A stretch of DNA of 64,000 bases from [Archangium] primigenium. GTDB taxonomy: Bacteria > Myxococcota > Myxococcia > Myxococcales > Myxococcaceae. Under the pieces are notes generated by a model. That model was not told the DNA's origin, did not search any database, and worked only from the letters and a program-made list of their open reading frames with translations. Location of the stretch: positions 7,177,224 to 7,241,223 of the forward strand of contig NZ_JADWYI010000001.1 in assembly GCF_016904885.1 (NCBI RefSeq), given 5' to 3'. This document shows positions 14,363 to 64,000 of this stretch, one piece after another. The position numbers and the translations under genes were made by a program. The stretch's first letter is position 1, and every line of letters begins with the position of its first letter.

Positions 14363-14394
14363 GCGCCGCGTCCCTTCCCTTCCGGAGGCCCCCC

Positions 14395-15186
14395 ATGCGC
14401 ACCGCCCTGGCGATCGCCCGCAAGGAGCTGTCCATCTACTTCACCACGCCCTGGGCCTATGCCGTCTTCACGGCGATGCAGGCCCTGGCGGCGTTCTTCT
14501 TCATGAGCGGCCTGGCCGACTTCCAGCGCGCCCAGGTCCAGGCGCGCCAGACGAGCTGGCAGCAGGTGCCCCCCATGTTCCGCAACCTCACCGACGGGGT
14601 GATGGTGCCGTTCTGGAACAGCGCGCTGATGATCACCCTCTTCGTGGTGCCCTTCCTGTCCATGCGGCTGTTCGCCGAGGAGCGGCGCAACAAGACGTTC
14701 GAGCTGCTCATGGCCTCGCCCATCCGGCCCGTGGAGATCGTCCTCGGCAAGTACCTGGGCGGCCTGGGCATCACCACCGCCACGCTCGGGCTCACGCTGC
14801 TCTTCCCCCTGACGCTCGCGTGGCTGGGCACGGGGGAGTCCGGGGCGCTGGAGTGGGGCACGGTGCTGCTCGGCTATGCCGGCCTGCTCTTGTGGGGCGC
14901 CACCTGCATGGCCGTCGGGCTGTTCATCTCCGCGCTCACCCAGAGCCAGATGGTGGCCGCCCTGGTCACCTTCGCCGTGCTCCTGCCGTGGATGATGCTG
15001 CGCGGGCTCGCCCAGAGCACCGAGGAGCCCCTGCGCTCCGTGCTCGGCTACCTGTCCTTCTCCACGCAGTTGTCCGGGATGCTCGGCGGCGTGCTGGACC
15101 TGCAGACGCCCGTGTTCTTCCTGTCCGTCATCGTCTTCTCCTTGCTGCTCTGCCACCGCGCGGTGGAGTCCCGGCGGTGGGCATGA
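14395..15186 (+). CDS. ABC-2 family permease (GldF-like)
   Basis: 263 aa with 6 predicted TM helices, directly after the ATPase. Confidence 0.85.
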   Translation: MRTALAIARKELSIYFTTPWAYAVFTAMQALAAFFFMSGLADFQRAQVQARQTSWQQVPPMFRNLTDGVMVPFWNSALMITLFVVPFLSMRLFAEERRNKTFELLMASPIRPVEIVLGKYLGGLGITTATLGLTLLFPLTLAWLGTGESGALEWGTVLLGYAGLLLWGATCMAVGLFISALTQSQMVAALVTFAVLLPWMMLRGLAQSTEEPLRSVLGYLSFSTQLSGMLGGVLDLQTPVFFLSVIVFSLLLCHRAVESRRWA

Positions 15187-20319: not shown

Positions 20320-20859
20320 GTGGCAGGCTCGACCCCATCCGCCCTGAAGGTCATCGCTGGCGGCCAGAAGGACCGGCGCGTCTTCCTGCGCGAGCTGTAC
20401 ACGGCGTACGGCGGCGGCGTGTACGGCCGCTGCCGCTACCTGCTCAAGGACGCCACGAAGGCCGAGGACGCGATGCAGGAGGTGTTCGCGCGCGTCCTGC
20501 AGCAGTCGGACCTGCCGCGCCAGGAGGGCACCACCCTGGCGTGGTTGATGAAGATCACCACCCACCACTGCCTCAACCTCTTGCGCGCCGAGCGGGCCCC
20601 CTGGCGGCGCTGGTTCGAGCGCGACGCGCGGGCCCGGCCCGAGGGCGCCGGGGGTGAGCAGGAGATGGAGACCCGGGAACTGGTGCGCTCGCTGCTCTCG
20701 CGCGTGGACCTGGAGACCCAGGCGGCGGTGGTGCACTACTGGGTGGATGACATGACGCTGGAAGAGGTGGCCGCGCTGGTGGGCCGCTCGGTCCCCACGG
20801 TGCGCAAGCGCCTGGAGGGCTTCGCCGCCCTGACGAACGAGGAGCTGAGGGTCTCATGA
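20320..20859 (+). CDS. ECF-family RNA polymerase sigma factor
   Basis: GTG start preceded by GGAGAGAAGAGGAG. Region 2 (DAMQEVFARVLQQ) and region 4 HTH (MTLEEVAALVGRSVPTVRKRL). Confidence 0.85.
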   Translation: MAGSTPSALKVIAGGQKDRRVFLRELYTAYGGGVYGRCRYLLKDATKAEDAMQEVFARVLQQSDLPRQEGTTLAWLMKITTHHCLNLLRAERAPWRRWFERDARARPEGAGGEQEMETRELVRSLLSRVDLETQAAVVHYWVDDMTLEEVAALVGRSVPTVRKRLEGFAALTNEELRVS

Positions 20860-48961: not shown

Positions 48962-50323
48962 TCAGGGCTTCGCGAGCACCGCCGCTTCCAGCCGGGCCAG
49001 CGAGCGCTTGAGCTCGGACATCTCCGTCTTGAGCGCGTCCACCTCCGCGCTCTTGGCCTTCAGCTCCTCCGTGCGGCGCGCCAGGGCCTGGATGGCCACC
49101 ATGTTCACCCCGTCGATGTCGAGCAGGCCGATGCTGCGCTCGTCGGGCCCCAGGCCGAACGCCGCGCGGAAGTCCTGGGCCACCGGCCCCACGTGCCGCA
49201 CCCCCCGCTGCTCCGACTTGTACTGCCAGCTGCGCACGGGCAGCGCGAGCACCCGGGCCAGCACCTGCTCCCCGTCCACGCTCCGGAAGTCCTCCTTGCT
49301 GTCCCGGTCGGACGTGCAGGAGAAGACGCCCGAGCCCGCGGGCAGATCACACCCGGTGCTCAGCGTGGCGCTGGTGCGCAACCGCACTCCACCCGCCGCG
49401 CGCACCATGAACTGGTTGGCCGCGGTGTTCGTCACCGTGCTGGTGGTCGACTGATCTCCCCAGATGAACGCGCCCGAGTGGCCGCCCGAGTCCGCCCGAT
49501 GTCCCAGCGCGAACGAGTAGTTCGCGTTCGCCGAGACGCGATACCCCAAGGCCACCGAGCCCTGTCCACTGGCCACATTGGTGTACCCCAGCGCCACCGA
49601 CGTGAAGCCGCTCGCCACGTTCGAGGCGCCCACGCTCAACGACGCCGTGCCGGAGGCCTTGCTGACCGAGCCCAGGCAGACCGCCACCGTCCCCTCCGCC
49701 TCGCACTGGTCCCCGTAGGCGAACGAGCCCAAAGCGCTGGCCTTCGTCAGGTTGCCACCCGCCCAGGACAAAAAGCCGATGTTGGCCTCGTCCCACTGCG
49801 TCTCGGTGTAGCCCGCGCGGAAGCTCGCCTTGGAGGGGTACCACATGAGCCGGTAGCCCTTGCCCGTCACGGGCAGCGTGCCGTTGCCCAGCTCGCCGGC
49901 CGCCACCAGTCCGCCCGCCGAGTCCACCGAGAACAGCGGAAAGCCCGCCCAGGCGGGCTTGTCCGTGGTGTTGCGCACGCTCAGCAGCGGCACCGGCTCC
50001 TGGGCACTCGCCGTCGCGTCGAGCACCACGTCCGTGTTCGCCGTCAACCGGCCCTGCACCTGCCCCGTCCCCCGCACCGCGAACGATGCGTCCTGAGGCG
50101 TCGTCCCCTTCTGGAGCGCCTGGGCCAACCGGGCATCGTTGCCCTCCACGGACGTGCCCGGACCGTCCCCGTAGACGACCCGCACCGCCTCGCCATCGAG
50201 CGAGAGCCCGGTGCCCACCTGCACGCCGCTCGGGGGCGGGGTGGCGGGGTCACACCCGCACAGACCCACGATCGCGACACCACTCCAGGCCACCACGGCT
50301 CCTCGAATCGACATGCCCTTCAC
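48962..50323 (-). CDS. Tail-fibre-like lipoprotein with YadA-head-like repeats and C-terminal peptidase S74 (endosialidase intramolecular chaperone) domain
   Basis: Lipobox VGLCGCD. Repeats SVALGYTNVASGQGSVALGY...SFALGH. C-terminal CTSDRDSKEDFRSVDGEQVLARVLALPVRSWQYK...GLLDIDGVNMVAIQAL + coiled coil matches the S74 chaperone domain. Confidence 0.75.
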   Translation of the reverse strand: MKGMSIRGAVVAWSGVAIVGLCGCDPATPPPSGVQVGTGLSLDGEAVRVVYGDGPGTSVEGNDARLAQALQKGTTPQDASFAVRGTGQVQGRLTANTDVVLDATASAQEPVPLLSVRNTTDKPAWAGFPLFSVDSAGGLVAAGELGNGTLPVTGKGYRLMWYPSKASFRAGYTETQWDEANIGFLSWAGGNLTKASALGSFAYGDQCEAEGTVAVCLGSVSKASGTASLSVGASNVASGFTSVALGYTNVASGQGSVALGYRVSANANYSFALGHRADSGGHSGAFIWGDQSTTSTVTNTAANQFMVRAAGGVRLRTSATLSTGCDLPAGSGVFSCTSDRDSKEDFRSVDGEQVLARVLALPVRSWQYKSEQRGVRHVGPVAQDFRAAFGLGPDERSIGLLDIDGVNMVAIQALARRTEELKAKSAEVDALKTEMSELKRSLARLEAAVLAKP

Positions 50324-50377
50324 TCCCTGTCAAAAGAGAGGGCCACCCTGGCAAAGGACTCGCGAGGAGTAAATCCG

Positions 50378-51274
50378 ATGAGCCAGAACCCCCCTCTGAC
50401 GCGGGCCCTGCTGTCCCTGGAGGGGCTGTCCGTGGGCGACGCCTTCGGCGAGCGCTTCCTCCAGGCCCCGGCCCTCGCCGAGGAGGACGTGGCCCGGCGC
50501 CAGTTGCCCGCCGCGCCGTGGGCCTACACCGACGACACGGAGATGGCCCTCGCGCTCGTCCAGGTGCTGGAGGAGCACGGACACATCGAGCCCGAGCGGC
50601 TGGCGCGGCTCTTCGGCGCCCGCTACCGCGCCCACCCGCGCCGGGGCTATGGCGCCACCGCGCACGACATCCTCCAGAAAATCCACCTGGGCATGCCCTG
50701 GCGGGACGTCTCCTCCGAGGTGTTCGGCGGCACCGGCTCCATGGGCAACGGCGCCGCCATGCGCGCCGCCCCGCTCGGCGCCTGGTTCGCCGATGACTTC
50801 GAGCGCTGCGTGAGCGAGGCCCGGCTGTCCGCCGAGGTGACGCACTTCCACCCCGAGGGACAGGCGGGCGCCATCGCCGTCGCCGTGGCGGCCGCCTGGG
50901 CCCACCGCTGGCGGGAGGCGCGCATGCCCGCCCCGGAACTCTTCGACGTGGTGCTCGCGTACACCCCGCCCGGGGAGACACGCGCGGGCCTGGAGAAGGC
51001 CCGCCAGTGGCCCCTGGAGGCCACCCCCACCTCCGCGGCGCGCGCCCTGGGCAGCGGCCAGCGCGTGCTCGCCCAGGACACGGTGCCCTTCTGTGTCTGG
51101 AGCGCGGCCCGCCACCTCGGGGAATACCCCGAGGCCCTCTGGAGCACCGTGGCGGGCAAGGGCGACCGGGACACCACCTGCGCCATCGTGGGCGGGCTCG
51201 TCGCGCTGAGCGCGGGCCGCGAGTCCATTCCCCCCGCATGGCTCACCGCTCGCGAGCCCCTCCCCCGCCGATAG
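50378..51274 (+). CDS. ADP-ribosylglycohydrolase family protein (ARH/DraG-like)
   Basis: ATG at 50378 preceded by GAGGAG. 298 aa. ARH-type motifs (SLEGLSVGDAFG, YTDDTEMALAL, GSMGNGAAMRAAPLG, DTVPFCVWSAARH, GDRDTTCAIVGGLV). The track ORF 49193..51274 is an antisense-extended version. Confidence 0.8.
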   Translation: MSQNPPLTRALLSLEGLSVGDAFGERFLQAPALAEEDVARRQLPAAPWAYTDDTEMALALVQVLEEHGHIEPERLARLFGARYRAHPRRGYGATAHDILQKIHLGMPWRDVSSEVFGGTGSMGNGAAMRAAPLGAWFADDFERCVSEARLSAEVTHFHPEGQAGAIAVAVAAAWAHRWREARMPAPELFDVVLAYTPPGETRAGLEKARQWPLEATPTSAARALGSGQRVLAQDTVPFCVWSAARHLGEYPEALWSTVAGKGDRDTTCAIVGGLVALSAGRESIPPAWLTAREPLPRR

Positions 51275-51293
51275 GCACGGCGCGAGCGCGGGC

Positions 51294-54200
51294 TCAGAAA
51301 CGCACGCACGCCTTGGCGTTGATGGAGGCCTCGGACTTCGCGCCGAGATCGATGGGTTCGATCGAGACCTGGCCATCGAAGAAGGACACGAAGGCGGGCC
51401 CAAACCCCACGCCCCCCTCTCCCTTGAAGGAGGGACCACACGGCCCCAGCGAGACCTCGGCGCTCACCTTCATCTTCGACCCCAGCGCCGCGTTGGTGAT
51501 CTCCGCCTTGACCGAGACCCCAGGATCGGCCAAGCCCCCGAACGGCTTGAACTCGAAACCCAAGCCCGCCCCGAAGCCCACCTGGCCGCAGGCGGAGAAC
51601 CCCTGGCCGGGAACCCAGGCCAGCTCGAACCCCCCACCCACTCCGTCGTACCCGGAGAACCCGATGGAGATGAAACCCGTCGGATCGACGCGGTTGACCG
51701 GGTCGCCCATCGCGTATTGATACAGGTTGAGCTGCCCCCCCGCGAAGCGCAGGGGATCTCGCGCCGTCCAGCGGCCCGCCTCCGCGTCGTAATCGCGGAC
51801 CCCGAAACGGGTGAGCCCACTGTGGCTGTCATAGAGGCCGCCCGCGAAGCCGAAGGGCTGGAAGCCTGGATTGGAATCGGACAGCACCTCGCCAAAAGGG
51901 CCATACTCCAGGGACTGCTCGACAACACCCGTGGAGGCATTGACGACCAGACGGATGCTGCCCAGCTGGTCGGTGAGGAGGCGGTAGGTGACACCATCCT
52001 TGAGCATGTAGTCGGGGACATGGCGCTGGCTGGCGTAGACGAAGCGGGAGACGACGGCGCCCGCGCCATCCAGCTCGGCCACCACACGCACGGGCCCGTC
52101 ATAGAGAAAGCCCTGGACCAAGGTGCCGCCGAGACGCTTGCCCACCCTGCGACTGGAGGCGTCCAGCACATAGTCCACTTGGGTGCCGTCGGGCAGCTGC
52201 ACGTGGGTGAGCGCCCCCAGGGCATCGTAGACGTACTGGGTGGGGGCGGCCTCGGACGAGCGCGAGCGCTGTTGCAAGTCGCCGTTGAGGCCAAAGGCGT
52301 AGGTGGCGGCCCCCTGCGTCTGGAGTCGCTCCTGGGCGTCATAGGTGGCGGTGAGGGTAGCGCCCCCCTGGGTGAGCGAGGTGCGGTTGCCATTGAGGTC
52401 GTAGCCGTAGGCGGAATAGGGCGCTCCGTCCAACGTCACGGCGTGGAGACGCCCGGCCAGGTCATAGGCGTACCCCCACACGCGGGTCACGCCTGACGTG
52501 GCTTCCGTCTTGGAGGTGATCCGCCCGGCGACGTCCCGGTCCAGGATGAGGCTGTAGAGGGGGGTGCTTCCCCAGACAGCGGACAGCGCTCGCACCTCGC
52601 CATGGGCATTGTACTGCTGCTCGGTCCTCACCTGGTCCAGGGTGGTCGTGGACAGCAACCCGGTGTCTTGCCCGCGCCCCAGGGAGAGCGCGCCCGCGGA
52701 GATGAGCAGGCCATCCAAATCATACGCATAGGCGAAGGACTGCCCCTGCACCTCGAGCGCCTGGAGGGAGAAGTCGGGGGTATAGGTGTAGCTCACGCCG
52801 CCCTGGACCTCGCCACTCCACGCCACGCTCTTCACCAAGGGCCCGTCATAGGCATACGCCAGGCTAGGACCCGCGCTGTCCGTGAGGGCCGCGAGATGGC
52901 CCTGGGCGTCATACACAAAATCCACCGTGGTCCGGGGCGTGGTGAGCGCGTCCACCCGGCCCGCGCCGTCCCTGGCCAGTTGCACGGAAGCACCGTCTGG
53001 CAGGGAGATGGACGTGAGGGCCCCGTCCCCGTTGTAGGCATACCGCGTGGGAGACAGGGGCGCGGAGGAGAGCGGAGGCGGGGTGTCGCTGTCCACGGTG
53101 TCGGCCGGGGTGTAGCGGAAGTCATGGGCGGAGCGCCCGGGGGGAACCATCCGGGTGAGATTGCCGTGGGCATCGGACGCGAGCCCCACGGTGCGGCCTC
53201 CTGGGAGCCGCTCGGCGGTGAGGCGACCCGCCCCGTTGTAGCTGAAGTCCGTGGTGCGCCCGAGGACGTCCTCCACCGTCGCCAGGTAGCCCGCGGCGTC
53301 GTAAGTATAGGTTTCCGTGCGCTCGCCTTGCGTCACCTTCCAGGGACGTCCCTCGGCGTCATAGCTGTACTCCAGGGGCAGCACGCCCACGACCTCCTGC
53401 CGGACCAGTCTTCCCCGCGCATCCAAGACGGAGGTGGCTAGGCGCCCACTGGGGCTCCGGGTCCTGAGGGTGCGGCTCGCGACCGCGTACGTGGCCGTCT
53501 GCGTGCGTCCATTCTGGCTGCGCGTGTCCACCACGGTCTCGAGCCCCTTCGTGACATCCCCCTGGACGTAGGTGGCCACATTGCCGTGGGTGGAGCTGGA
53601 GGTGAGGCCCCCCGGCAGCGTCACCTGAACGGAGGAGCGCAGGGGCACCTGCATCCCGAAGCGTGCGTCCGGGCCCAGCACTTCCGTGGTGCGGGTGCCA
53701 TCCGGCGCCAGGGTGGTCGTGGTGCTTCCGTCCGCCGTCCGCAGGCTCGATGTGACCGTGCCATCCGGCGCCGTGGTGGTGCGCTGCTGCCCTCCTCCCG
53801 CCAGTTCCCGCACCTGGTAGCGGGTGGTGGTCCCCAAGGCGGTGGAGACGGCGACCGAGTAGCCATCCTCGGCATCCGTTCGCGACAGGTGCTTGTAGCC
53901 CCCCGTGGGCTGGGTGTCCCGCGCCAGCCTTCCCCGAGCGTCATAGGTGTACTGGTGCAAGCCGCCTCGGGCATCCCGCATCGAGGTGAGCAGCCCATGG
54001 GTGGAGTGCTCGAGTTCCACGCGCTCTCCCGCCGGGTTCGTCAGGGAGGAGAGGTAGCCCTGGACATCCCATGTCAGGCGGGTGCGCTGGCCATGAGGGG
54101 CGATGATCGCCAGGGGCTTGCCCGAGGTGTCCCGCTCGATCCGGGTGACCAGTCCGTCTCCATCCGTCACCGAGGTGAGCCGACCGTCCGTGCTGTAGTC

Positions 54201-57200
54201 GAACTGGTAGTGGAGCGCCCCCGTCAGTGCATTCACGGTGCGAAGGTGCCGGCCCCCAGACCCGAAGACGTACACCTCACCGCCGGCCTCGGAGAGGATG
54301 GAGATGCCGCCGACAGAAGAGGCGCTCAATGGCGCGGGGCGCACGGCGCGAACACGGTGGTTGTTCCTATCCGCGATGTACAGAGTGCCGTCTGGCCCGA
54401 CGGCGATGCGGGATGTGCCATTGAAACGAGCCAGGGTGGCTGGCCCTCCATCACCGCCAAAACCGCCCGTGCCCGGTGTCCCCGAGCCCGCCACGGTGGT
54501 GATGAGGCCTTCCGGGTCCACGCGCCGAATGCGTTGGTTGAAGTCATCCGCGATATACAGACTGCCGTCCGGGCCCACGGCGACATCCTGCGGGTACAGG
54601 AAACGAGCCAGGGTGGCCGGCCCCCCATCGCCGTCAAAACCGCCCGTACCCGGTGTCCCCGAGCCCGCCACGGTGGTCACGGTGCCCTCCGGGCCCACAC
54701 GCCGAATGCGTTGGTTGCCCGTATCCGCGATGTACACGCTCCCGTCCGGGCCCACGGCGACCCCCCTTGGGTAATTGAAACGCGCCAGGGCGGCCGGTCC
54801 GCCATCGCCGCCAAAGCCCGACGTCCCCGTGCCCGCCACGGTGGAAATACGGCCCTTCGGGTCCACGCGCCGGATGCGCTGGTTGAAGACATCCGCGATG
54901 TACAGACTGCCGTCGGGTGCCACGGCGACACTCTCCGGAGAGCTGAAGTAGGCCTGGGTGGCCGGCCCCCCATCGCCGCCAAAGGTGCCATGACCCGGTA
55001 TCCCCGAGCCCGCCACGGTGATCATGGTGCCATTCGGGCGCACGCGCCGGATGCGTTGATTTTTCCTATCCGCGATATACAGGCTGCCGTCCGGGCCCAC
55101 GGCGACAGCGGATGGGCTGTCGAGGTACATCGAGTTGCCAAGCTCCCCCTCGTTGCCGTTCAGTCCCGGCAAGCCGACAATACCCGCCACGGTTTTGATG
55201 CTGCCGTCTGGACTCACCCGCCGGACGCGGTGGGAATAGAGTTCCACGAGATAGAAGGCCCCATCTGGCCCGACGGCGACCCCCACGGGTTGGCCCACAT
55301 GGGTCTGCGTTGCTGACAATGAGTCGAGTGAATAGGCGAGGACGCCCGTACCCGCCACGGTGAAGATGTTGCCCGCGGTGAGCGACCCTGAGCTTGTCTC
55401 CCCATGGCCGAAAAGGATCCGGCCGCCGTGGGGATCCCACTGGTGGTGCACGGACAGTCGCCAGCCCCCCAGGTCTTCAGGCGACTCGCTCCATCCACCC
55501 ACCCGAGAGCGCCACGACTGCCAGGAGGTCATCTCCCTCCGCTCTCGGTTGGAAGTGACGGGCTCCGAACCCAGTTGCGCGAAGGAATCGGGGAACTCGG
55601 CGGGCTTCAAATAGACGAGCGGGTAGCGATAACCCGTCCTGCCCGTAACGACCGCCTCACCTTGCACCTTTCGGCCGTAGGCATCCTTCCCATCCCATGT
55701 GAACGAGAGCGTCTGGTGAGGCGCGGCGGGCAGCTCGTAAGTGAAGGCTCTGCCCGCGACATTCACCTCGACGACGATTCCCTCGAGCGAGGGCGGCACC
55801 GAGGCACCACTGACAGGAATGCGCAGGGTGTTCTTGTCTTGCCCCCGCACCCGGTCACTCCGGTAGTGCAGGCGCGAGGACGTCCCCGTGAGCGGCAGTG
55901 ACTCGCCCAATGCCTGGTTCTGACAATCAATGACGCTGCCCTTCTGGCAATCCGGCTTGTTCTCGGGACCCGCCTGGGGCGGCGCGTTCGTCGGAGGCCG
56001 CGCCCCCGGGGGAGGCCCATAGGGCCAGTTGTAATCCCACGGAGTGAAGTGGCTCACGGGGACGCGCCACAGGCTCTTGCCCACCGGGTAGAGGCTGGCC
56101 AACTGCCGCTGCTCGGCCTCGGAGATGCCCAGCGTGGCCAGCACCGCGGCGCTGTCCGGCACGCCGTCTCCCGTGACATCCAGTTGCGCCACACCCTCGA
56201 GGACGCCGTGCACCTGGAGGATGCGGCCGTTGGTCGAGGGCAGCCAGACCCCTCGCCGCCGATCGTAATAGCCCGAGGGCACGGTGCCGCCCACGGGGAA
56301 GCCCAGGAAGTTGTCCACGTAGGAGGCCACGGGCTGGGTGAAGCGCACCTCCTGGCTGTCCAGCGCCAGGGCCTCGTCCAGGGACAGCTCCACCGCGTAG
56401 GTGTACCCGCTGGTGGGAGGCAGATGCGCCGGCATGGAGGCGGGCCCCTCCTCGCCCACCGTGTACTCGGTGGCGCGCACCGTGGCCGAATAGAGGGGCA
56501 CCTCGTCCCCATTGGCCAGGACGGCCAGGGCCTGGGTGCCCGGGGCGAAGAGGAGCGTGGCCTGCCGGGTGCCATCCGCGTCCGTGACCGGGCTGCCTCG
56601 CGCCACCTGGTGGGTGGTGCTCGTGCCGCTGAAGTCCACGGGCGTGCCCTGGGGGTCCAACGGGACGAGCACCACGTCCGGCAGCCAGGCGAAATCTCCC
56701 CAAGGGACGTGGAGCTGGCGCTGAGACGGCAGCAGTCCCTCGGCCTCGTACCTCACGGTGAGGAGGCCTCCGCCATTCACGGCCAGGTCGAAGAGGCCAT
56801 CCTCCCGTGTGAGGGTGTGGCCATACTCCGGATGGTCGAGCACGGAGACGCGCACCTCCTCCAGCGGGTAGCCCTGACGTGAGCGCACCTTGCCGCGCAG
56901 CACCGCCAAGCGATGGGGCACCAGGGTGCCGGGGGCCACGCCCACCTGGATGGGGTCCTCTCCCGAGTAGAGGAAGGACACGGCGTCCACGAAGGGCGTC
57001 ACCGCGAACGGGGACAGCGCGGGCGCGCGCTCCTCGGGGGCGGGCGGAAGGTCGAAGGGCGGCACGTCCACATGCAGGGCGGCGACGGACTCCTGGACCA
57101 GCGAGCCGTAGGCATTTCCCTGGCCATCCCGCCAGGACAGCGCCACCTGGGTCCGCTGGGCCTGCCCCTCGAGCGCCCGCAGGCGCGCGGCGTACGCCGA

Positions 57201-57905
57201 GACGGTTTCACCCCGCTGCCTCACGGGAAGTGGAGGCGGCGTCCAGGTCACCGCCTTGTTCCAGGTGGCGCCCGGCGCCATCGCGTCCAAGGCCACCTCC
57301 ACCCGCGTGGCGTCGGACAACACCACCTGGAGACTTCCCGAGGCGGTCCCCGCCAACCCCCCGTTGGTGACCGTCACGGTATAGGTGATCGCCTCTCCCG
57401 GCAGTGCCACCACGGGGCCTTCCAGGCGCAGGGAGAGACGCGGCAGTACCACGCGACCGTCCGAGGACAACGAGAGGGGCTTGGCCTGAACTCCCGGGGT
57501 CTCGGCGAAATGAACCTCCCCTCGCGATACGAGCGGCTGCCGCTCCAGGTCCTCCAGACGTTGGTGGTAGGAGGCGAGCGACTCGGATTCCCCCCGCGGC
57601 GCCGCGACCGGCGCCGCCAGGTGGAAGGTCACGGTGCGCTCTTCCCCCACCGCCAGGGCACCCACCCGCTCCTCGGCGGAAGGCGGCTGCGTTCCCTGGA
57701 AAGCCTCCCCCACTCGCACGTCGTCCACCGGTACGGAGGACGTGTTGGTCAGTCGTACCAGGACATCGAACCCCTGCCCCGGCAGCACCTCCAAGGGTTG
57801 TGTCTGTGTGGCCACGAGCGAGGCCGGTACCGGGGCGGCGCTGTCACATGCCCCCATCCCCAGCAGCATCCACAGCGCCACCACACGAATGGTCAACGAA
57901 GACAT
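51294..57905 (-). CDS. Teneurin-like RHS/YD-repeat protein: signal peptide, DUF11/CARDB-like repeats, 5 NHL repeats, YD-repeat shell, RHS core, 125-aa Gly-rich C-terminal domain of unknown function
   Basis: Met at 57905 (MSSLTIRVVALWMLLGMGAC). NHL units (LYIADRKNQRIRRV, LYIADVFNQRIRRV, VYIADTGNQRIRRV, LYIADDFNQRIRRV, LYIADRNNHRVRAV). Many YD motifs (YTYDARGRL, YSYDAEGRP, YAYDLAGRL...). RHS core terminus RDPLRFAGGQLNLYQYAMGDPVNRVDPTGF. Then a novel C-terminal domain. Confidence 0.85.
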   Translation of the reverse strand: MSSLTIRVVALWMLLGMGACDSAAPVPASLVATQTQPLEVLPGQGFDVLVRLTNTSSVPVDDVRVGEAFQGTQPPSAEERVGALAVGEERTVTFHLAAPVAAPRGESESLASYHQRLEDLERQPLVSRGEVHFAETPGVQAKPLSLSSDGRVVLPRLSLRLEGPVVALPGEAITYTVTVTNGGLAGTASGSLQVVLSDATRVEVALDAMAPGATWNKAVTWTPPPLPVRQRGETVSAYAARLRALEGQAQRTQVALSWRDGQGNAYGSLVQESVAALHVDVPPFDLPPAPEERAPALSPFAVTPFVDAVSFLYSGEDPIQVGVAPGTLVPHRLAVLRGKVRSRQGYPLEEVRVSVLDHPEYGHTLTREDGLFDLAVNGGGLLTVRYEAEGLLPSQRQLHVPWGDFAWLPDVVLVPLDPQGTPVDFSGTSTTHQVARGSPVTDADGTRQATLLFAPGTQALAVLANGDEVPLYSATVRATEYTVGEEGPASMPAHLPPTSGYTYAVELSLDEALALDSQEVRFTQPVASYVDNFLGFPVGGTVPSGYYDRRRGVWLPSTNGRILQVHGVLEGVAQLDVTGDGVPDSAAVLATLGISEAEQRQLASLYPVGKSLWRVPVSHFTPWDYNWPYGPPPGARPPTNAPPQAGPENKPDCQKGSVIDCQNQALGESLPLTGTSSRLHYRSDRVRGQDKNTLRIPVSGASVPPSLEGIVVEVNVAGRAFTYELPAAPHQTLSFTWDGKDAYGRKVQGEAVVTGRTGYRYPLVYLKPAEFPDSFAQLGSEPVTSNRERREMTSWQSWRSRVGGWSESPEDLGGWRLSVHHQWDPHGGRILFGHGETSSGSLTAGNIFTVAGTGVLAYSLDSLSATQTHVGQPVGVAVGPDGAFYLVELYSHRVRRVSPDGSIKTVAGIVGLPGLNGNEGELGNSMYLDSPSAVAVGPDGSLYIADRKNQRIRRVRPNGTMITVAGSGIPGHGTFGGDGGPATQAYFSSPESVAVAPDGSLYIADVFNQRIRRVDPKGRISTVAGTGTSGFGGDGGPAALARFNYPRGVAVGPDGSVYIADTGNQRIRRVGPEGTVTTVAGSGTPGTGGFDGDGGPATLARFLYPQDVAVGPDGSLYIADDFNQRIRRVDPEGLITTVAGSGTPGTGGFGGDGGPATLARFNGTSRIAVGPDGTLYIADRNNHRVRAVRPAPLSASSVGGISILSEAGGEVYVFGSGGRHLRTVNALTGALHYQFDYSTDGRLTSVTDGDGLVTRIERDTSGKPLAIIAPHGQRTRLTWDVQGYLSSLTNPAGERVELEHSTHGLLTSMRDARGGLHQYTYDARGRLARDTQPTGGYKHLSRTDAEDGYSVAVSTALGTTTRYQVRELAGGGQQRTTTAPDGTVTSSLRTADGSTTTTLAPDGTRTTEVLGPDARFGMQVPLRSSVQVTLPGGLTSSSTHGNVATYVQGDVTKGLETVVDTRSQNGRTQTATYAVASRTLRTRSPSGRLATSVLDARGRLVRQEVVGVLPLEYSYDAEGRPWKVTQGERTETYTYDAAGYLATVEDVLGRTTDFSYNGAGRLTAERLPGGRTVGLASDAHGNLTRMVPPGRSAHDFRYTPADTVDSDTPPPLSSAPLSPTRYAYNGDGALTSISLPDGASVQLARDGAGRVDALTTPRTTVDFVYDAQGHLAALTDSAGPSLAYAYDGPLVKSVAWSGEVQGGVSYTYTPDFSLQALEVQGQSFAYAYDLDGLLISAGALSLGRGQDTGLLSTTTLDQVRTEQQYNAHGEVRALSAVWGSTPLYSLILDRDVAGRITSKTEATSGVTRVWGYAYDLAGRLHAVTLDGAPYSAYGYDLNGNRTSLTQGGATLTATYDAQERLQTQGAATYAFGLNGDLQQRSRSSEAAPTQYVYDALGALTHVQLPDGTQVDYVLDASSRRVGKRLGGTLVQGFLYDGPVRVVAELDGAGAVVSRFVYASQRHVPDYMLKDGVTYRLLTDQLGSIRLVVNASTGVVEQSLEYGPFGEVLSDSNPGFQPFGFAGGLYDSHSGLTRFGVRDYDAEAGRWTARDPLRFAGGQLNLYQYAMGDPVNRVDPTGFISIGFSGYDGVGGGFELAWVPGQGFSACGQVGFGAGLGFEFKPFGGLADPGVSVKAEITNAALGSKMKVSAEVSLGPCGPSFKGEGGVGFGPAFVSFFDGQVSIEPIDLGAKSEASINAKACVRF

Positions 57906-57992
57906 GTGCGCCCCCCAGGCGCACGAGCCTACCGTCGACGGTGACCCCACCGACGGCCTCGTTCGACAGACGTTGGGCCGGAAACAAGGGAA

Positions 57993-59219
57993 TCAGGTGC
58001 CCGGCGCGCGGTACTGGAGCTGCAACGGTGAGCCCCGCGTGTTGTAGGGGTGGTCGGCGCCCACGGCGGACATCCACCCGCACGCGCCCCGGTTCCACAG
58101 GTCCACCACCTGGTTGTTCGCGCTGTAGGTCGCCTCACCGGAGGCGGCGTAACCCGCCGCGGCGAACTGGTTGGGCGCCATGACGAAGGCCGTGCCCCTC
58201 AGGTCGACGTTGCCCAGGCCCGTGTTGCCGAAGTCGCAGTTCATGGCCGAGCCGTAGGTCATGGAGGTGACGGGGTCGCCGTGCGAGAGCACTCCCGTGG
58301 ACGTGGCGAAGGTCTGGTCCGCGGTGTTCACCCGCAGTGTCGCGGGATCGATGCGGACCTTGGTGTAGACGGTCCGCACGTTCGTGTCCCCCGGGCGGTC
58401 GGACCGTGCGGTGTACTGGGAGAAGTTGCTCGACGCGCCCGTGGAGGGCAGCGGCAGGTAGTCCGTGGGGCCACCGGACATGTTGTGGCAGTAGGCCGTC
58501 CAGGGCTGGGCGGCATTGCCCTTCACGTACAGCGTATACGTCCCGTCCTGCGCGGGAGGATGCGTGAGCTTGTACTCCAGGCAGCTCGCCGGAGTCACAT
58601 CCAGCCACGACCCCTGGGTCACGTCCACGAAGTGCATGAGCCTCAAGCTGCCACTGGGGCTGGTCAGCCAGTACGGCTTGCCCGCCGGATCGAACAGGTC
58701 CTTGAACGCGCCGTTGCCCTGCAGGACGAAGAACTGTCCCGGCCCCGGGACGCTCATGTCCTGGGAGAGGACGACCTGGACACTGATGTTGGGATACTCG
58801 TTGTCGTTGTTGTACCCCCGCGCGAACCACGACCACCTGCGGCCGTCATAGTCATAATCCCGCTGCTCCCCATGCTCGCCCCAGGCCGCCACCCGCGTCG
58901 GGAAGACCGTGGGATTCACACCGTAATGACTGACATCCCCGATAAGGCAGCTGTACTTGCCATTGGACGGAAACGAGCCGTAGCGGCAATTGCGGCCTCC
59001 CTGGCTCGTGGTCGTATAGATGGAGGTGACCGCGAGCTTGCCGTCCTGCATGAAGAGCTCGGACTTCGAGCGGAACCCCGCGTTGTCGAACGTCAGGATG
59101 ACCGCCAGCTTCCCATTGGGCCAGTACCACGCCATCCGGGCATCCGCTCGCGCGGAGGCACTGAGCAGACACGTCAGGGAGACTGCCGCGAGGGATGCGA
59201 GCGATGCCAAGCGCTTCAT
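57993..59219 (-). CDS. Secreted protein with Cys-containing C-terminal domain weakly reminiscent of GON/fibrinogen-like domains
   Basis: Signal peptide MKRLASLASLAAVSLTCLLSASARA. 408 aa. Conserved Cys/Trp/Tyr pattern (TYTLYVKGNAAQPWTAYCHNM...MNCDFGNTGLGNVDL...WNRGACGWM). Co-oriented 42 nt upstream of the RHS gene. Confidence 0.6.
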   Translation of the reverse strand: MKRLASLASLAAVSLTCLLSASARADARMAWYWPNGKLAVILTFDNAGFRSKSELFMQDGKLAVTSIYTTTSQGGRNCRYGSFPSNGKYSCLIGDVSHYGVNPTVFPTRVAAWGEHGEQRDYDYDGRRWSWFARGYNNDNEYPNISVQVVLSQDMSVPGPGQFFVLQGNGAFKDLFDPAGKPYWLTSPSGSLRLMHFVDVTQGSWLDVTPASCLEYKLTHPPAQDGTYTLYVKGNAAQPWTAYCHNMSGGPTDYLPLPSTGASSNFSQYTARSDRPGDTNVRTVYTKVRIDPATLRVNTADQTFATSTGVLSHGDPVTSMTYGSAMNCDFGNTGLGNVDLRGTAFVMAPNQFAAAGYAASGEATYSANNQVVDLWNRGACGWMSAVGADHPYNTRGSPLQLQYRAPGT

Positions 59220-59362
59220 GGGACGACCCTTTCCTGTTCGGGGGAGACGACGTCGCGGCGGTACCTTCCCACCCCGGGCGTGTGCCCGGAGGAGAAAATT
59301 CCGTCACCTCCAGAATAGTCAGGAAAGCGCGCAGCGGACAATGGCGTGCGCGGCGCCGGCGG

Positions 59363-60511
59363 TCACAGCAGGCCGGTGCCGTACGCGTAGCTCCGGGTGG
59401 GCCCCTCGCCCTCGGTGGACAGACGCCGCACGCTCAGGTTCATCGAGGGCACGTGCGAGCCGGGCGACGAGGAGAACGTCACCTGGAGCGTGTCCCCCCG
59501 CTTCACGGGAAGCGCGTCGATGGGAAACCACGTCTGGTGCCAGTGCGTGTGGATGGAGAACGGGGACGTGTCGAGCACCTCCCCGGGCGCCAGTTCCAGC
59601 TCGAAGTGGCCCGCCAGACCGTGCACCACCGCGTCCCGGTCCATGCGGAACTCCACGCTCGACTCGAAGTAGAAGGACCCCACCGACTCCTTCGTGCAGT
59701 CGATGTGCCGCAGGAGCACGGGCTCCGTCAGGTAGCTCTCGCGCCGGACCCGGTCGATCCGCATCTTCAGGTTGCCCAGCTCCTGCGCCTTCACCTGGCT
59801 GTAGTCAAAGCCCCCGATGGGCTGCTCCCAGAAGCCCGGACCCTCGTACTGGTAGAGCGCCGAGTCCTCGATGGGCGCCAGGAAGAGCCTGCCCGCCGAG
59901 GGAATGGTCCGGCCGCCGGGCTTGAGCACCCGGTCGCGCACCGCCGAGAACGCCGGGTACATGTTCTCCACGATGAGGAAGTGGCCAATCCACTCCGAGA
60001 CGATGACGTCCGCCTGGATGTCCGCGGAGAAGTCCGCCGCGTCCCCGTGGAACAGCTCGATCCGGTCCGCCAGGCCATTGGCCTCGATGAGCGAGCGCGC
60101 CGTGTGGACGATCGCGGAGCGCTCGATGGCGAAGACGCGCTCGGCGCCACTGGCCGCGGCCGCCATGGCGAGCAGCCCCGTGCCCGTGCCGACGTCCACC
60201 ACCGTGTCCCCGGGCTGGACCACCTTGCGGATGGCGCGCAGGAACGCGTCGTTGCGCGCCCGGTCGCGCAGCATGTTGCGCTGGCTGCCCAGGGTCGCGA
60301 AGTCCAGGAACAGCACCGAGGCCTGTTCGGACACCTCCTGCGAGGCCGACAGAATCCCCGACTCGCGGATGGCCGCGAAGCGCTCGCGCAGCACGGCCTC
60401 GGGCAGTCCGGAGCTCTGGGCCACCGAGCGGATCAACTCCTCGGGCTCCATGGGTGAGGCGAGCGCCAAGAGCAGGGGGATGACGTCTTCCCGGAGCTGG
60501 TAGAAGGGCAC
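59363..60511 (-). CDS. Protein arginine N-methyltransferase (PRMT)-family class I SAM-dependent methyltransferase
   Basis: Motif I VVDVGTGTGLL; post-I FAIERS; double-E loop SEWIGHFLIVENM; THW loop THWHQTWF; N-terminal MLRDRARNDAFLRAI like the PRMT pre-motif. 382 aa. Confidence 0.8.
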   Translation of the reverse strand: MPFYQLREDVIPLLLALASPMEPEELIRSVAQSSGLPEAVLRERFAAIRESGILSASQEVSEQASVLFLDFATLGSQRNMLRDRARNDAFLRAIRKVVQPGDTVVDVGTGTGLLAMAAAASGAERVFAIERSAIVHTARSLIEANGLADRIELFHGDAADFSADIQADVIVSEWIGHFLIVENMYPAFSAVRDRVLKPGGRTIPSAGRLFLAPIEDSALYQYEGPGFWEQPIGGFDYSQVKAQELGNLKMRIDRVRRESYLTEPVLLRHIDCTKESVGSFYFESSVEFRMDRDAVVHGLAGHFELELAPGEVLDTSPFSIHTHWHQTWFPIDALPVKRGDTLQVTFSSSPGSHVPSMNLSVRRLSTEGEGPTRSYAYGTGLL

Positions 60512-60578
60512 GGAGGGGTCTCCTGGTGGGGGTTGCGACGAACCCTACCAGCCGCCCCCGCCACGTCGCGAGACCCCG

Positions 60579-62390
60579 TCAGGGACGAGCGACGAGCTCC
60601 CGGTGCTGGTTGAAGAACCGCTCGAACAGCACGGTCAGTCGCTTGCGGATTTCTTCTCGGGGATGCTGCTCCCATTGGGCGAGGCAGCTCAGCAGCTCGC
60701 GCACCCACCCGGGGTTTTGCATGCGGGCGAACCGGGCCTCGAAGTAGAGCGCGAGGACCAGGGACTCGTTCTTCTCCTGCCCGTCCAGACGGACACCCGG
60801 TTGGGGATAGTCCTCGTGAGGGTCCAGTCCCGTCGGCAGTCCGGCGATCTCGATGACCACGCGCTTGAGCGCCCCCGGCTCGGCGTCGCGCAGCGGGAGC
60901 GTGCCGAGCCGACACGCATGGAAGAGCCAGATGAGGTAGCGCCGCAGCCGGCGCTCGGACAGCATCCGCATGGGACGCTCGGGCTCGAAGACCCGAAAAC
61001 TCTCCAGCACGTTCCAGGCGATGTCTTCCATGTCCTGGGTCCGCGTCCGGCCCCGCGCCCTTCCCGGCCGATGGTCTGTTCGCCAGGCGAGCGCCGCCTC
61101 GACGGCGAGCGCATCCGCGTCGAAGTCCAGCGCCTCGAGCACGAACCCTGTCCGGCCGCTGCCCTGGTAGTCATAGGAGGTGGCGCCCTGCTGGGCGACA
61201 TGGAACGCCTCGTGGACGAGCAACAACCGGACGCACTCCTCCCAGTCCTCGGGCGAGCGCAAGCGCTCCTGCAACTGCCGGTATCCCAGCAACAGGTTGA
61301 CGTGGAACGTCCAGCTGCCGTTGAGGTGCCGGAAGAGCGGGGCATTCTGGCGCGCGGGAACCGTGTCGATGTCGCTCTGGAGCAGGGACGTCTGCTCCAG
61401 CTTCTGGCGCAGGGACTTCTGTTTGGGACGCTTGAGCCAATCACACAGCTGCGCGTGGATGGTACGCACCCGCTTGAGCAGCTCTCCGGCCTCGGCGAAC
61501 TGCTCGGACGAGGGCGAGCCCGGTGTCGACGCGACCCGCCGCGGCGGATGGATGCGGCGGACGGCGAGGTACTTGCGCTGCTCGGGGTTGAAGTGGTGGA
61601 GCACCACGGGATGCTGCGTGTTCGTGTTGATGACCGAGCCCAGCGCGGCGGCCAGGCTGGCGGGTCCATCCATGGCGAGCAGCACGGACTCCACGCCCTC
61701 CAGGTGCTTGTGCAGGGTGTCCATCACGGAGCGGAACTGCTCGGCGGCCTCGGACGCATCCTGGAGGCTCTGGACGGCCTGGGGGCTCGGGCCTCCCCGC
61801 GCGGGCCGCAGGACCACGGTGGCGAGCAGCTCCGAGGGATGGCGGGCCTGGAACTCGGCGAGCGCCACATCCCGGATGGACTGGGTCACCTCGACGATGA
61901 GGGCCACCTTGCCCCGGCCTCCCTGACGTGACGTGGGCAGCCCCTCCAGCGCGAAGAACGGCGTCTGCGCGGAGGACAGCGAGCGGTCATAGCCCAGCAG
62001 CCAGGTGCCATCCGTGATCCGCTGTTGATACACGTACAGCGGCCGGCGCGGCAGGCAGGACGCCAGGTGCAGCATCAGCATCAGGGGGGCGCACCCGAAG
62101 AGGTGGATGTCCAGATCCACCCCCAGCTCCCGCTCCTTCCTCGACAAGGCCTCGGCGAAGCGCTCGTTCTCGTCGAAGGCCGCGGACCAGTCCTGCTCGG
62201 GCCGCGTCCGGATGCGCGTGTGGGGCTCGAACGGATGCAGCACGACCGCCACGACATCCCGGTCACCTTCCACGCCTCGCTGCTTCAGGGCGTCGCGCGC
62301 GGCGTCCTCCGTGATGGGCCTGTCGTGCTCGTAGCGCAGGATGAGGGCTCGGGTCCTCACGTTGATGGGAATGTCGATGTCCATGGGCAT
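60579..62390 (-). CDS. Hypothetical protein: N-terminal tandem Rossmann-like (SAVED/CARF-like) repeats fused to C-terminal DUF4157-type HExxH (zincin-like) domain
   Basis: Start at the Met at 62390 (MPMDIDIPI...); the track start at 62522 would overlap the kinase gene. Two repeats centred on IHLFGCAPLMLMLHLASCL...PLYVYQQ and VLLAMDGPASLAAALGSVIN...PVVLHHF. The C-terminal LLLVHEAFHVAQQG matches the DUF4157 HExxHxxQQ signature. Confidence 0.7.
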   Translation of the reverse strand: MPMDIDIPINVRTRALILRYEHDRPITEDAARDALKQRGVEGDRDVVAVVLHPFEPHTRIRTRPEQDWSAAFDENERFAEALSRKERELGVDLDIHLFGCAPLMLMLHLASCLPRRPLYVYQQRITDGTWLLGYDRSLSSAQTPFFALEGLPTSRQGGRGKVALIVEVTQSIRDVALAEFQARHPSELLATVVLRPARGGPSPQAVQSLQDASEAAEQFRSVMDTLHKHLEGVESVLLAMDGPASLAAALGSVINTNTQHPVVLHHFNPEQRKYLAVRRIHPPRRVASTPGSPSSEQFAEAGELLKRVRTIHAQLCDWLKRPKQKSLRQKLEQTSLLQSDIDTVPARQNAPLFRHLNGSWTFHVNLLLGYRQLQERLRSPEDWEECVRLLLVHEAFHVAQQGATSYDYQGSGRTGFVLEALDFDADALAVEAALAWRTDHRPGRARGRTRTQDMEDIAWNVLESFRVFEPERPMRMLSERRLRRYLIWLFHACRLGTLPLRDAEPGALKRVVIEIAGLPTGLDPHEDYPQPGVRLDGQEKNESLVLALYFEARFARMQNPGWVRELLSCLAQWEQHPREEIRKRLTVLFERFFNQHRELVARP

Positions 62391-62463
62391 CCGGTGGTGT
62401 TTTCCGCCTCCACACGGGAAGACGGAATCGCCGGGCGAATCCATCGCGGGCCGTGCGCTTTTT

Positions 62464-63309
62464 TCAGGTTCCGGGGGTGAGCAGCCCGAGCACTTCCGCC
62501 AGGGCGGGCCGGTCCTCGGCATCCTTCGCCAGCATCCGCGCCATCATCGTCCGTACGGCGTCGGACGCACGACCCTCGAGCAGCGCCAGGGGCGGTTCGC
62601 CTCGGACGTGAAGGATCATCAATCCCTGCTGACCGCTCGACTGGAAAGGCAGTTGGCCCGTCAGCAGCTGAAACCACAGGACGCCCAGGGAGTAGACGTC
62701 CGCCGACGGTCCCACCGTCTTCGCATCGAACCACTGCTCCGGGGGCCGGTAGTCCGCGGTGCCGAGCATCGTGCCACCCGCCGTGGAGATGGGCAGCCCC
62801 TCGGGTCCCGCCGAAGGGAGCCGCTTGGCGAGTCCAAGGTCCGCGAGCCGCACGCTCCAATCACCCGGCACCCGGCGAGCCACGAGCACGTTCTCGGGCT
62901 TCAAGTCCCGATGGATGATCCCCTTCGCATGGAGCAGGGAGAGCACCTCGGCCAGCTGCCCGACGACCTGGACACTCTCCAGGCAAGACAGCCGGCCTCC
63001 CACGCGGGCGAGCGCGCGGGCGAGGTCCTCCGGATGCCACTCCAACACCATGTAGGGTGGGCCCTCGGGGAGCTCCCCCGAGGAGAGACCCTTCACCAGA
63101 TGCGGATGCGCGAGCCCCTGGAGCATCCGGGCCTCGTTGAGGAAGCGCGCCATGACCTCGGGGTCGATGCACCACGTCGGGTGCAGGACCTTGATGGCCA
63201 CGGAGGCGCCATCGGACGCCCTGCGTCCTTCGTAGACGGTGCCGGTCAGCCCCTCCGCGACGAAGCGCAGCAGGCGGTACTCCCCGACCTGTGTTCCCTT
63301 CGACAGCAT
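62464..63309 (-). CDS. Hanks-type Ser/Thr protein kinase (kinase domain only, 281 aa)
   Basis: Met at 63309 (MLSKGTQVGEYRLLRFVAEGLTGTVYEG). VAIK Lys; catalytic loop IIHRDLKPENVLV; ADLGLAK; activation segment ...GTADYRPPE. Confidence 0.85.
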   Translation of the reverse strand: MLSKGTQVGEYRLLRFVAEGLTGTVYEGRRASDGASVAIKVLHPTWCIDPEVMARFLNEARMLQGLAHPHLVKGLSSGELPEGPPYMVLEWHPEDLARALARVGGRLSCLESVQVVGQLAEVLSLLHAKGIIHRDLKPENVLVARRVPGDWSVRLADLGLAKRLPSAGPEGLPISTAGGTMLGTADYRPPEQWFDAKTVGPSADVYSLGVLWFQLLTGQLPFQSSGQQGLMILHVRGEPPLALLEGRASDAVRTMMARMLAKDAEDRPALAEVLGLLTPGT

Positions 63310-63320
63310 TCCAAGTGCCT

Positions 63321-64000
63321 CTACTTCGAGCCGGTGGGCTTGAGCATGTACAGCGCCTGGATGCAAGACAGCAGGCTCCGCAATTCCTCGGCGCACTGGG
63401 GATGGTCCGCCACGAAAGCCTCCACGTCCACCTGCTCACCCTGCTGCTGTTTGCGCATGTAGAGGAGCAGGGCCGCATCCGCGGCGTTCTGGATGATGGC
63501 GTCCTGGCTGATTCCCGGCGACTGCTTCTCGGGGTTGCCAGACCTGCGATCCCGGATGGCGCGCACAGCTCGCTGGCGGAGGGAGCTCACCGCATCCTGA
63601 CTCTTGCCCATGTGTTGCGCGATCTCCGCATCGGACAGATCGTCCAGATAATAGAGAAAGACGACCTTCCGTTGCTCCTTGGGCAGGCCGTAGACATACC
63701 CCAGCAGTTGTCGACACTCCTCCTGCTGGGATGCGAACTGACTCGGGCTTCGCTGGACGGCGGCCAGTTGATGGGAATCGAGTTCCTCCAGGGACTCCGT
63801 GGCATCCTCGCTTCGCTTCTGGCTGTGGGCCTCGCGCGAGATATCCATGAGGCGTCTCCGCTGAATCTTCTTGAGCCAGGCGAACCACGACTCCTCGGTC
63901 TCTCCGTCGAAGGAGGGGAAGCGCTGGAAGGCACGCAGCGCTGTTTCCTGAACGAGATCCGATTTGCGGGTACCAGCCGGAGGGGACCGTCCCATCTGGT
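63321..64000 (-). CDS. ECF-type sigma factor with C-terminal extension (partial; N-terminus beyond window end)
   Basis: Region 2 DLVQETALRAFQRFPSFDG...WFAWLKKIQRRR and region 4 LSDAEIAQHMGKSQDAVSSLRQRA, followed by a ~75-aa extension. The conserved region 1.2/2.1 lead-in is missing, so the true start lies past 64000. Confidence 0.75.
   Translation of the reverse strand, partial: QMGRSPPAGTRKSDLVQETALRAFQRFPSFDGETEESWFAWLKKIQRRRLMDISREAHSQKRSEDATESLEELDSHQLAAVQRSPSQFASQQEECRQLLGYVYGLPKEQRKVVFLYYLDDLSDAEIAQHMGKSQDAVSSLRQRAVRAIRDRRSGNPEKQSPGISQDAIIQNAADAALLLYMRKQQQGEQVDVEAFVADHPQCAEELRSLLSCIQALYMLKPTGSK

Follow-up and report, generated by a model that had tools for sequence, protein, structure and literature searches.

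Do four co-oriented genes at one end of a 64,000-nucleotide stretch of [Archangium] primigenium DNA (contig NZ_JADWYI010000001.1; G+C content ∼68%; the whole stretch is referred to here as the window) form a regulatory module of their own, or do they belong to a larger system? On the minus strand, the genes encode an extracytoplasmic function (ECF) sigma factor, a small Hanks-type Ser/Thr kinase (STK), a SAVED sensor domain fused to a predicted zinc metallopeptidase (SAVED-zincin), and a protein arginine methyltransferase (PRMT). We read the locus, with a probability of roughly 0.6, as the 3′ portion of a cut-down Myxococcota defense cassette that combines an antiphage signaling system based on cyclic oligonucleotides (CBASS) with a type III-B CRISPR operon, the sigma-driven mode of working proposed below included. 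The features on which this reading draws are as follows, with the basis of each in parentheses.

63321-63995 and beyond, minus strand: ECF sigma factor, open reading frame (ORF) running past base 64000 (Sigma70_r2/r4 and Sigma70_ECF matches, Pfam/NCBIfam)
62464-63309, minus strand: small STK of 281 amino acids (aa) (Pkinase, E 2e-39)
62419-62447, minus strand: ECF-type promoter-like motif GCGAT-N18-CGTCTT (spacer alignment to related locus L029 and enrichment over shuffles)
60579-62390 (or 62384, second Met), minus strand: SAVED-zincin effector of 601 to 603 aa (Pfam SAVED and PADLOC PDLC02018)
61200-61214, minus strand: HEAFH (HExxH), predicted zinc-binding/catalytic motif (invariant in 23 sequences)
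59363-60511, minus strand: type I PRMT-like methyltransferase of 382 aa (PRMT_C and Rossmann methyltransferase domains)

An earlier, sequence-only reading of this DNA had described four co-oriented genes, and these are indeed present, with gaps that we measure at 11 nucleotides (nt) between sigma and STK, 73 nt between STK and SAVED-zincin (79 nt from the second Met), and 67 nt between SAVED-zincin and PRMT. Its suggestion of a single operon held in part. No terminator-like hairpin was found in the three gaps, where the spacers fold no better than shuffles and scans for sigma-70 promoters and terminators gave nothing exceeding shuffled sequence; in addition, no extra ORF lies between the sigma, STK, and SAVED genes. 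However, the STK-SAVED spacer holds an internal promoter-like element, so one four-gene transcript is not the sole reading. The sigma gene is truncated at its 5′ end by the end of the window, with ∼52 N-terminal codons missing by comparison with L031, a contig from the same lineage (95.6% identical) whose orthologue has 277 aa. Exact-sequence look-ups of the SAVED protein (three start variants) and of the PRMT gave no record, and the region upstream of the window was recovered from this contig, which was reached through its 99%-identical PRMT. L031 shares the gene order sigma-STK-SAVED-PRMT with the window, and an nSTAND1 protein gene follows just past the point at which the window ends.

A SAVED sensor fused to a divergent zincin

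The third gene had been taken to encode a ligand sensor fused to an HExxH zincin, an architecture that our searches bear out: the SAVED domain is N-terminal (∼residues 16 to 280) and the zincin domain is C-terminal (∼residues 295 to 603). The protein has a 100%-identical counterpart among NCBI proteins of A. primigenium. The SAVED domain matches its Pfam and NCBIfam models with E values of 5e-19 and 2.8e-29, respectively, and residues 66 to 601 of the protein align to positions 1 to 494 of the 498-position PADLOC CBASS effector model PDLC02018, “SAVED_peptidaseM48” (E 1.9e-160). The PADLOC SAVED_LON models reach only the SAVED part, and weakly (E 0.014). In an AlphaFold model of the whole protein (mean predicted local distance difference test score [pLDDT], 84), the N-terminal half resembles the SAVED domains of Cap5, SAVED-CHAT, and CalpL, and the nearest sequence relative of this domain in the Protein Data Bank (PDB) is SAVED-CHAT of Haliangium ochraceum (E 1.4e-7).

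The C-terminal 309 residues, modeled alone, gave a pLDDT of 87, and a Foldseek search of this domain against the PDB returned no significant match. Across 23 homologues with identities down to 36%, H393-E394-x-x-H397 and E419 never vary, and we therefore regard the domain as a divergent one, predicted to be a peptidase of the gluzincin type. The window protein keeps all 73 of the 73 residues that are invariant in the family. The labels DUF4157, which the sequence-only reading had assigned, and Peptidase_M48 were both dropped, as neither has a Pfam match for the whole protein, for the C-terminal domain (even at an E value of ≤10), or for any of the 23 members; the sole Pfam trace at the HExxH motif is DUF6782, below threshold. 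The zincin domain family is small, with 183 clusters (50% identity, E ≤1e-3) among 1.84 billion representatives, and most of its proteins are ∼580 aa long with the domain at the C terminus. In the literature searched, we found no paper on a characterized SAVED-metallopeptidase.

A conserved cassette in related genomes

Related loci were gathered by a profile scan of genomes with the family alignment, which yielded 28 loci, and by exact-protein look-ups, which yielded two more; all were annotated by tblastn and Pfam. Loci with at least 49% SAVED-zincin identity, 20 with the window included, are referred to here as close loci. A recurring gene order emerged: a gene for an STK-nSTAND1-TPR protein (∼1,125 aa), the ECF sigma (∼270 to 300 aa), the small STK, one or two SMODS cyclase genes, and SAVED-zincin (conserved in L001 to L006, L009, L011 to L017, and L029). 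Sigma and STK lie directly upstream of SAVED-zincin in 18 of the 20 close loci, the exceptions being L007, in which the contig is too short to judge, and L008, which is disrupted by transposases. This co-occurrence is far beyond chance. SMODS adjoins SAVED-zincin in 16 of the 20, and a complete Cmr1-Cas10-Cmr3-Cmr4-Cmr5-Cmr6 operon is found in 12, starting no more than ∼120 nt from the SAVED-zincin stop codon. The Cas10 proteins of these type III-B operons keep the GGDD motif and lack the HD domain. Where the contig permits, CRISPR arrays of ∼28 repeats come after the Cmr operon. Three of the four genes belong to a myxobacterial CBASS/type III-B defense cassette, in keeping with the earlier proposal of a conflict or signaling locus.

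Beyond the close loci, distant SAVED-zincins (25 to 29% identity) occur in a Polyangia metagenome-assembled genome (MAG), in Sorangium, and as a paralogue in Archangium gephyra; those of L019, L020, and L022 still match PDLC02018 with E values from 1e-98 to 1e-195. The distant loci carry STK-STAND, sigma, and STK genes upstream and cyclases beside the effector, followed by Cas10, type III-D-like genes, or an E1/E2 gene.

Individual loci depart from this order. Myxococcus sp. Y35 (L010) has independently lost SMODS and retained Cmr. In Myxococcus sp. RHSTA-1-4 (L008), two transposases and a PAAR-toxin/SUKH-immunity pair (740-5954) replace sigma, STK, and SMODS, with the promoter-like motif (5908) and the Cmr operon retained. 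Two Corallococcus loci, L013 (11815-13287) and L017 (12269-13000 and 13091-13963), have a second SAVED effector after SAVED-zincin instead of Cmr; that of L013 is a Cap4-like nuclease-SAVED protein, and L017 has an additional SMODS. In Myxococcus sp. 1LA (L014), SMODS, SAVED-zincin, Cas10, and Cmr3 look split by frameshifts (9016-9884, 10001-11802, 13387-15161, and 15170-16008), through either pseudogenization or assembly error. An Archangium MAG (L015) carries a bpMoxR AAA ATPase and a VWA protein, of the MoxR-VWA ternary-system type, in the Cmr position (11791-15095); found in this locus alone, the pair was not counted among the cassette members. PADLOC matches to mad2/mad6 (MADS) were likewise set aside and treated as generic similarity of methyltransferase and kinase domains.

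A promoter-like motif ahead of the cyclase and effector genes

The spacer downstream of STK carries the motif GCGA[TC]-N18-19-CGTC[CT]T in 19 of 21 cases, the Sorangium and Polyangia loci included. The motif is usually preceded by GAAAAAAG and sits ∼30 to 45 nt before the following start codon. Across all loci and the window, 34 copies were observed against 3.65 expected from shuffles, and nearly all of them, on the coding strand, immediately precede a SMODS or SAVED-zincin gene, with one copy before each in several loci. The window copy lies ∼30 nt upstream of the SAVED-zincin start, with the A-tract before it overlapping the STK stop codon, and is homologous to the spacer ahead of SMODS in the relatives. 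ECF-dependent promoters typically show a constant spacer length and a −10-like box with CGTC. Because this conserved ECF-like motif precedes the SMODS and SAVED-zincin genes, its placement suggests that the sigma/kinase pair controls expression of the effector. A second match in the window (20470, plus strand, GCGAT-N18-CGTCCT) was rejected as a chance occurrence; it falls inside the ORF of another ECF-type sigma factor (20320-20859, plus strand).

The ECF sigma factor and its kinase

The pairing of a Hanks kinase with an ECF sigma factor that carries a C-terminal extension, already noted from the letters of the window, is confirmed by the domain matches and by conservation of the extension in orthologues. 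The extension measures ∼55 to 70 aa across orthologues (∼70 aa in the window, where it includes ...HPQCAEELRSLL...), shows the shared pattern ...Y/HPxCAxELRxLL..., and matches no Pfam model. A QRSPSQ linker motif is also conserved among the sigmas (20 orthologues aligned). The best NCBIfam match of the sigma, TIGR02984, falls below its cutoff (100 versus 184 bits). The STK is a stand-alone, bare kinase domain with VAIK, HRD, and DLG motifs. Its orthologue comes after sigma in 18 close loci as well as in L019, L020, and L022, and the sigma-STK pair is kept in >20 loci. In Hyalangium versicolor (L005, 7448-8965), a sigma without the extension is fused in frame to STK in a single 505-aa ORF, which supports a direct sigma-kinase partnership.

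Where region 2.2 of the sigma would have DAED, the window protein reads R-K-S-D and the orthologues read R-P-S-D, the Ser being invariant. ECF43 sigmas, which are activated by kinases, have lost DAED and have a phospho-acceptor in its place (PMC8999054; see also PMC13147305). The ECF43-type pairs EcfP/PknT and EcfK/PknS (PMC8999054, PMC13147305) resemble the present one in three respects: an STK gene is adjacent, an anti-sigma gene is absent, and Ser stands where the acidic DAED of region 2.2 is missing. Unlike them, the window sigma has an additional conserved C-terminal extension, and its likeness to the group is read here from the motif and the gene neighborhood. The kinases differ too: the small STK consists of a cytoplasmic kinase domain alone, and the cassette has a second kinase, joined to a STAND-TPR sensor.

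The sigma gene also stands out in its synonymous divergence. Between the window (63321-63995) and L031 (2247-3080), dS is 0.24, compared with 0.06 to 0.08 in STK, SAVED, and PRMT. Because this is ∼3 times the value of the adjacent genes, it suggests local recombination or allele exchange.

What the window copy has lost and kept

The window lineage is the only sampled one without both SMODS and Cmr beside SAVED-zincin. For comparison of spacers, the closest relative is L029, with a SAVED protein 74% identical to that of the window. The 73-nt STK-SAVED spacer of the window aligns to the STK-SMODS spacer of L029 up to a point from which it matches instead the final bases ahead of the SAVED start. 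Because the alignment switches in this manner, the SMODS ORF, together with the short SMODS-SAVED spacer, was excised cleanly in the A. primigenium lineage. Of the marks of a CBASS, the window copy has an effector with a cyclic-nucleotide sensor domain (SAVED) and lacks a cyclase gene adjoining it. Adjacency to cmr/cas10 with an intact cyclase motif, as expected of an ancillary effector of type III-B, is absent from the window and present in 12 close relatives.

Ratios of nonsynonymous to synonymous substitution (dN/dS) were calculated between the window and L031, giving 0.25 for sigma, 0.21 for STK, 0.24 for SAVED-zincin, and 0.06 for PRMT. Because their values lie between 0.21 and 0.25, we judge the retained sigma, STK, and SAVED-zincin genes to be constrained: they are under purifying selection, not decaying. 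Since all three remain under such selection, the window protease is probably still in use.

Proposed working of the cassette

The following model builds on what was observed above: the families to which the proteins belong, the order of the genes, the deletion, the enriched motif, and the purifying selection. The STAND-kinase, the small STK, or both would phosphorylate the ECF sigma, as in ECF43-type systems, with the invariant Ser of R-P/K-S-D as the candidate acceptor. The activated sigma would then transcribe from the GCGAT-N18-19-CGTCYT promoters of SMODS and SAVED-zincin. The SAVED domain would bind a cyclic oligonucleotide, the product of either SMODS or the HD-less GGDD Cas10, and binding would switch on the zincin protease, which, by analogy with Cap4/Cap5, SAVED-CHAT, and CalpL, would cleave protein targets. 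In A. primigenium, excision of SMODS has joined the predicted SMODS promoter to the SAVED-zincin gene, the Cmr operon is missing, and a PRMT gene occupies its position. As such, the window protease would have to answer a nucleotide signal made elsewhere in the genome.

Several points weigh against this model. The 64-kb window yielded neither a SMODS homologue (tblastn, E ≤1e-4) nor homologues of Cmr or Cas10, nor was a CRISPR array found in it. Among the best 120 matches listed for the cyclase of L029, most of which carry no organism label, none is labeled A. primigenium. No copy of the motif was seen ahead of the genes for sigma, STK-nSTAND, or Cmr1, and a factor other than the adjacent sigma could be what binds it. 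Finally, phosphorylation, promoter recognition, ligand binding, and proteolysis with its targets are steps that we infer.

Comparison with known systems

The sequence-only reading had seen no described system to which the locus corresponds. This did not hold, given both the match to the PADLOC effector model and the neighborhoods that Steens et al. describe around related Myxococcota SAVED proteins (bioRxiv 10.1101/2023.06.23.546230; Science 2024), which contain cyclases, a kinase resembling PCk, and a sigma resembling Sigma-70. The locus is a cut-down version, without its cyclase, of a Myxococcota CBASS/type III-B cassette that has been catalogued but not characterized. Literature searches for a characterized SAVED-metallopeptidase, or for a CBASS that has both an ECF sigma and a Ser/Thr kinase, brought up only the neighborhood remark of Steens et al., the work on CalpL, and the DdvS island, and no functional study of any member of the Myxococcota SAVED-zincin cassette was found.

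The neighborhoods of Steens et al. and the SAVED-CHAT locus of H. ochraceum share with the cassette the combination of a sigma and a Hanks kinase with one to three cyclases and type III-B Cmr genes, and L022 carries the E1/E2 (thiF-like) gene mentioned by those authors. Compared with the H. ochraceum locus, the cassette has a divergent HExxH zincin rather than a CHAT caspase-like protease as its effector, lacks PCaspase and PCi, and has an STK-nSTAND1-TPR gene at its head; the window copy additionally lacks the cyclase and Cmr. Among CBASS effectors with SAVED domains (Cap4, Cap5, and the PDLC02018 family), the protein in the window gives a full-length PADLOC match, and its relatives have an adjacent SMODS, whereas the window has no cyclase.

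A third comparison is offered by the DdvS-DdvA island of Myxococcus xanthus, where sigma-dependent promoters drive CBASS/type III-B defense genes (PMC11506125). There, as in the cassette, an ECF sigma lies inside a myxobacterial island of CBASS (cyclase of the CD-NTase family plus SAVED-protease) and type III-B Cmr genes. The DdvS-DdvA island, however, has a transmembrane anti-sigma, DdvA, and a CHAT-SAVED effector, whereas the cassette has Hanks kinases and a STAND NTPase, for which we propose the controlling role, and SAVED-zincin. The CalpL-CalpT-CalpS system likewise pairs a SAVED-fused protease with a neighboring ECF-type sigma gene in a type III setting, and it probably shares the logic as well, a cyclic nucleotide acting through a protease to alter gene expression. 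It differs in that its protease is Lon rather than a zincin, in that the cassette has no CalpT-like anti-sigma and instead partners its sigma with a Ser/Thr kinase, and in that the promoter-like motif of the cassette suggests that the sigma drives expression of the effector.

Alternative readings

This last system provides the model for the main alternative, which we consider unlikely overall and in which the order of events would be reversed. As in a metalloprotease analogue of CalpL-CalpT-CalpS, the activated SAVED-zincin would cleave the ECF sigma (in its extension or QRSPSQ linker) or the small STK; sigma and STK would act downstream of the protease, and a nucleotide alarm would be turned into a transcriptional program. 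Three couplings of a type III protease to an ECF-like sigma provide precedent (CalpL/T/S, Craspase-Csx30-CASP-sigma, and SAVED-CHAT/PCaspase/PCc-sigma with the PCk kinase), and SAVED-CHAT of H. ochraceum is the nearest PDB sequence relative of the SAVED domain. Further points in its favor are the conserved extension and linker motif of the sigma and the fact that sigma, STK, and SAVED-zincin stay together despite the loss of both cyclases in the window, SMODS having been lost also in L010. In L013 and L017, moreover, the Cap4-like nuclease-SAVED effector could be the killing arm and the zincin the regulatory one. However, a CalpT-like anti-sigma gene is absent, the argument proceeds by analogy throughout, and the conserved ECF-like promoter ahead of SMODS and SAVED-zincin speaks for a sigma that acts upstream, at the least. 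L008 also retains SAVED-zincin and Cmr without sigma or STK, although transposases lie upstream. This direction of control could coexist with the proposed model as feedback.

A more specific version of the same idea is more doubtful still. Here, SAVED-zincin would be a site-specific metalloprotease, activated by cyclic oligonucleotides, that acts on the co-encoded, phosphorylation-regulated ECF sigma (at its extension or QRSPSQ linker) or on the kinase of that sigma; the A. primigenium copy would be a free-standing receptor that responds in trans to nucleotide signals of other defense systems, and a cotranscribed PRMT would perhaps be part of the output. If true, the cassette would add a fourth protease-to-sigma branch, different in mechanism, to type III/CBASS signaling.

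Improbable, in our view, is that sigma, STK, and SAVED-zincin are a decaying relic, left functionless in the A. primigenium lineage after the loss of SMODS and Cmr. The missing cyclase and Cmr genes would fit such a history, as would the variability of the cassette across genomes (the transposases of L008 and the apparent frameshifts of L014). Yet every ORF in the window is intact, no family-invariant residue has been lost, the promoter-like motif is preserved, and the dN/dS values of 0.21 to 0.25 were obtained against a 4.4%-diverged relative of the same architecture (L031).

The arginine methyltransferase and adjoining genes

The fourth gene encodes a genuine type I PRMT-like enzyme, as judged by its PRMT_C match (E 1.7e-16), its Rossmann methyltransferase domains (Pfam), and the motifs in its translation: VVDVGTGTG (motif I), the double-E loop SEWIGHFLIVENM, and the THW loop THWHQT. 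Homologues are scattered in their distribution. By tblastn, no PRMT was found within ±10 kb of SAVED-zincin in any of 29 related loci (L001 to L029), and the two occur together only in L031, from the same lineage as the window. The nearest PRMT outside the lineage, that of Cystobacter ferrugineus (84% aa identity), has a GntR/aminotransferase gene on one side and an unrelated convergent gene on the other; genes for sigma, kinase, and SAVED proteins are all absent within 10 kb of it, and nucleotide homology between it and the window starts and stops at the boundaries of the PRMT ORF. The PRMT is a lineage-specific neighbor or passenger, not a conserved member of the cassette, and may well be cotranscribed with it in A. 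primigenium.

The sequence-only reading had grouped all four genes in one module of phosphorylation, arginine methylation, and proteolysis, to be checked by their co-occurrence in close relatives. That check separated the genes: the sigma-STK-SAVED block is kept in 18 of the 20 close loci, and the PRMT shows no co-occurrence signal. A module that includes the PRMT is thus highly improbable even though the gene lies on the same strand after a 67-nt gap free of terminator-like structure, starts with GTG preceded by an AGGAG ribosome-binding site, keeps its place in L031, and may depend on read-through for its expression because no native upstream region is common to the window and C. ferrugineus copies; set against this are its absence from all 29 other SAVED-zincin loci, the unrelated genes around its nearest outside relative, and its far stronger constraint (dN/dS of 0.06 versus ∼0.24), which suggests a different selective regime.

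Directly after the PRMT, an 8.1-kb segment of the window (51262-59347) is missing from L031, which resumes at window position 51261. The segment encodes a 2,218-aa teneurin-like protein (51294-57950, minus strand; TTR, FN-plug, NHL, and YD-shell/RHS) and a secreted protein with a GON domain (57993-59219, minus strand). Convergent to the teneurin-like gene is a 693-aa ORF with a C-terminal ADP-ribosylglycohydrolase domain (49193-51274, plus strand).

Significance

The cassette joins two generators of nucleotide signals, SMODS and the HD-less Cas10, to one SAVED-metalloprotease effector and, if the model proposed here is correct, subjects both generators and the effector to control by an ECF sigma together with Hanks kinases and a STAND sensor. 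Together, the motif and the natural sigma-kinase fusion provide testable ideas on how expression of an abortive-infection effector is gated in myxobacteria. The window copy, for its part, is a natural “receptor-only” variant under purifying selection and as such could serve for asking whether SAVED effectors work in trans.

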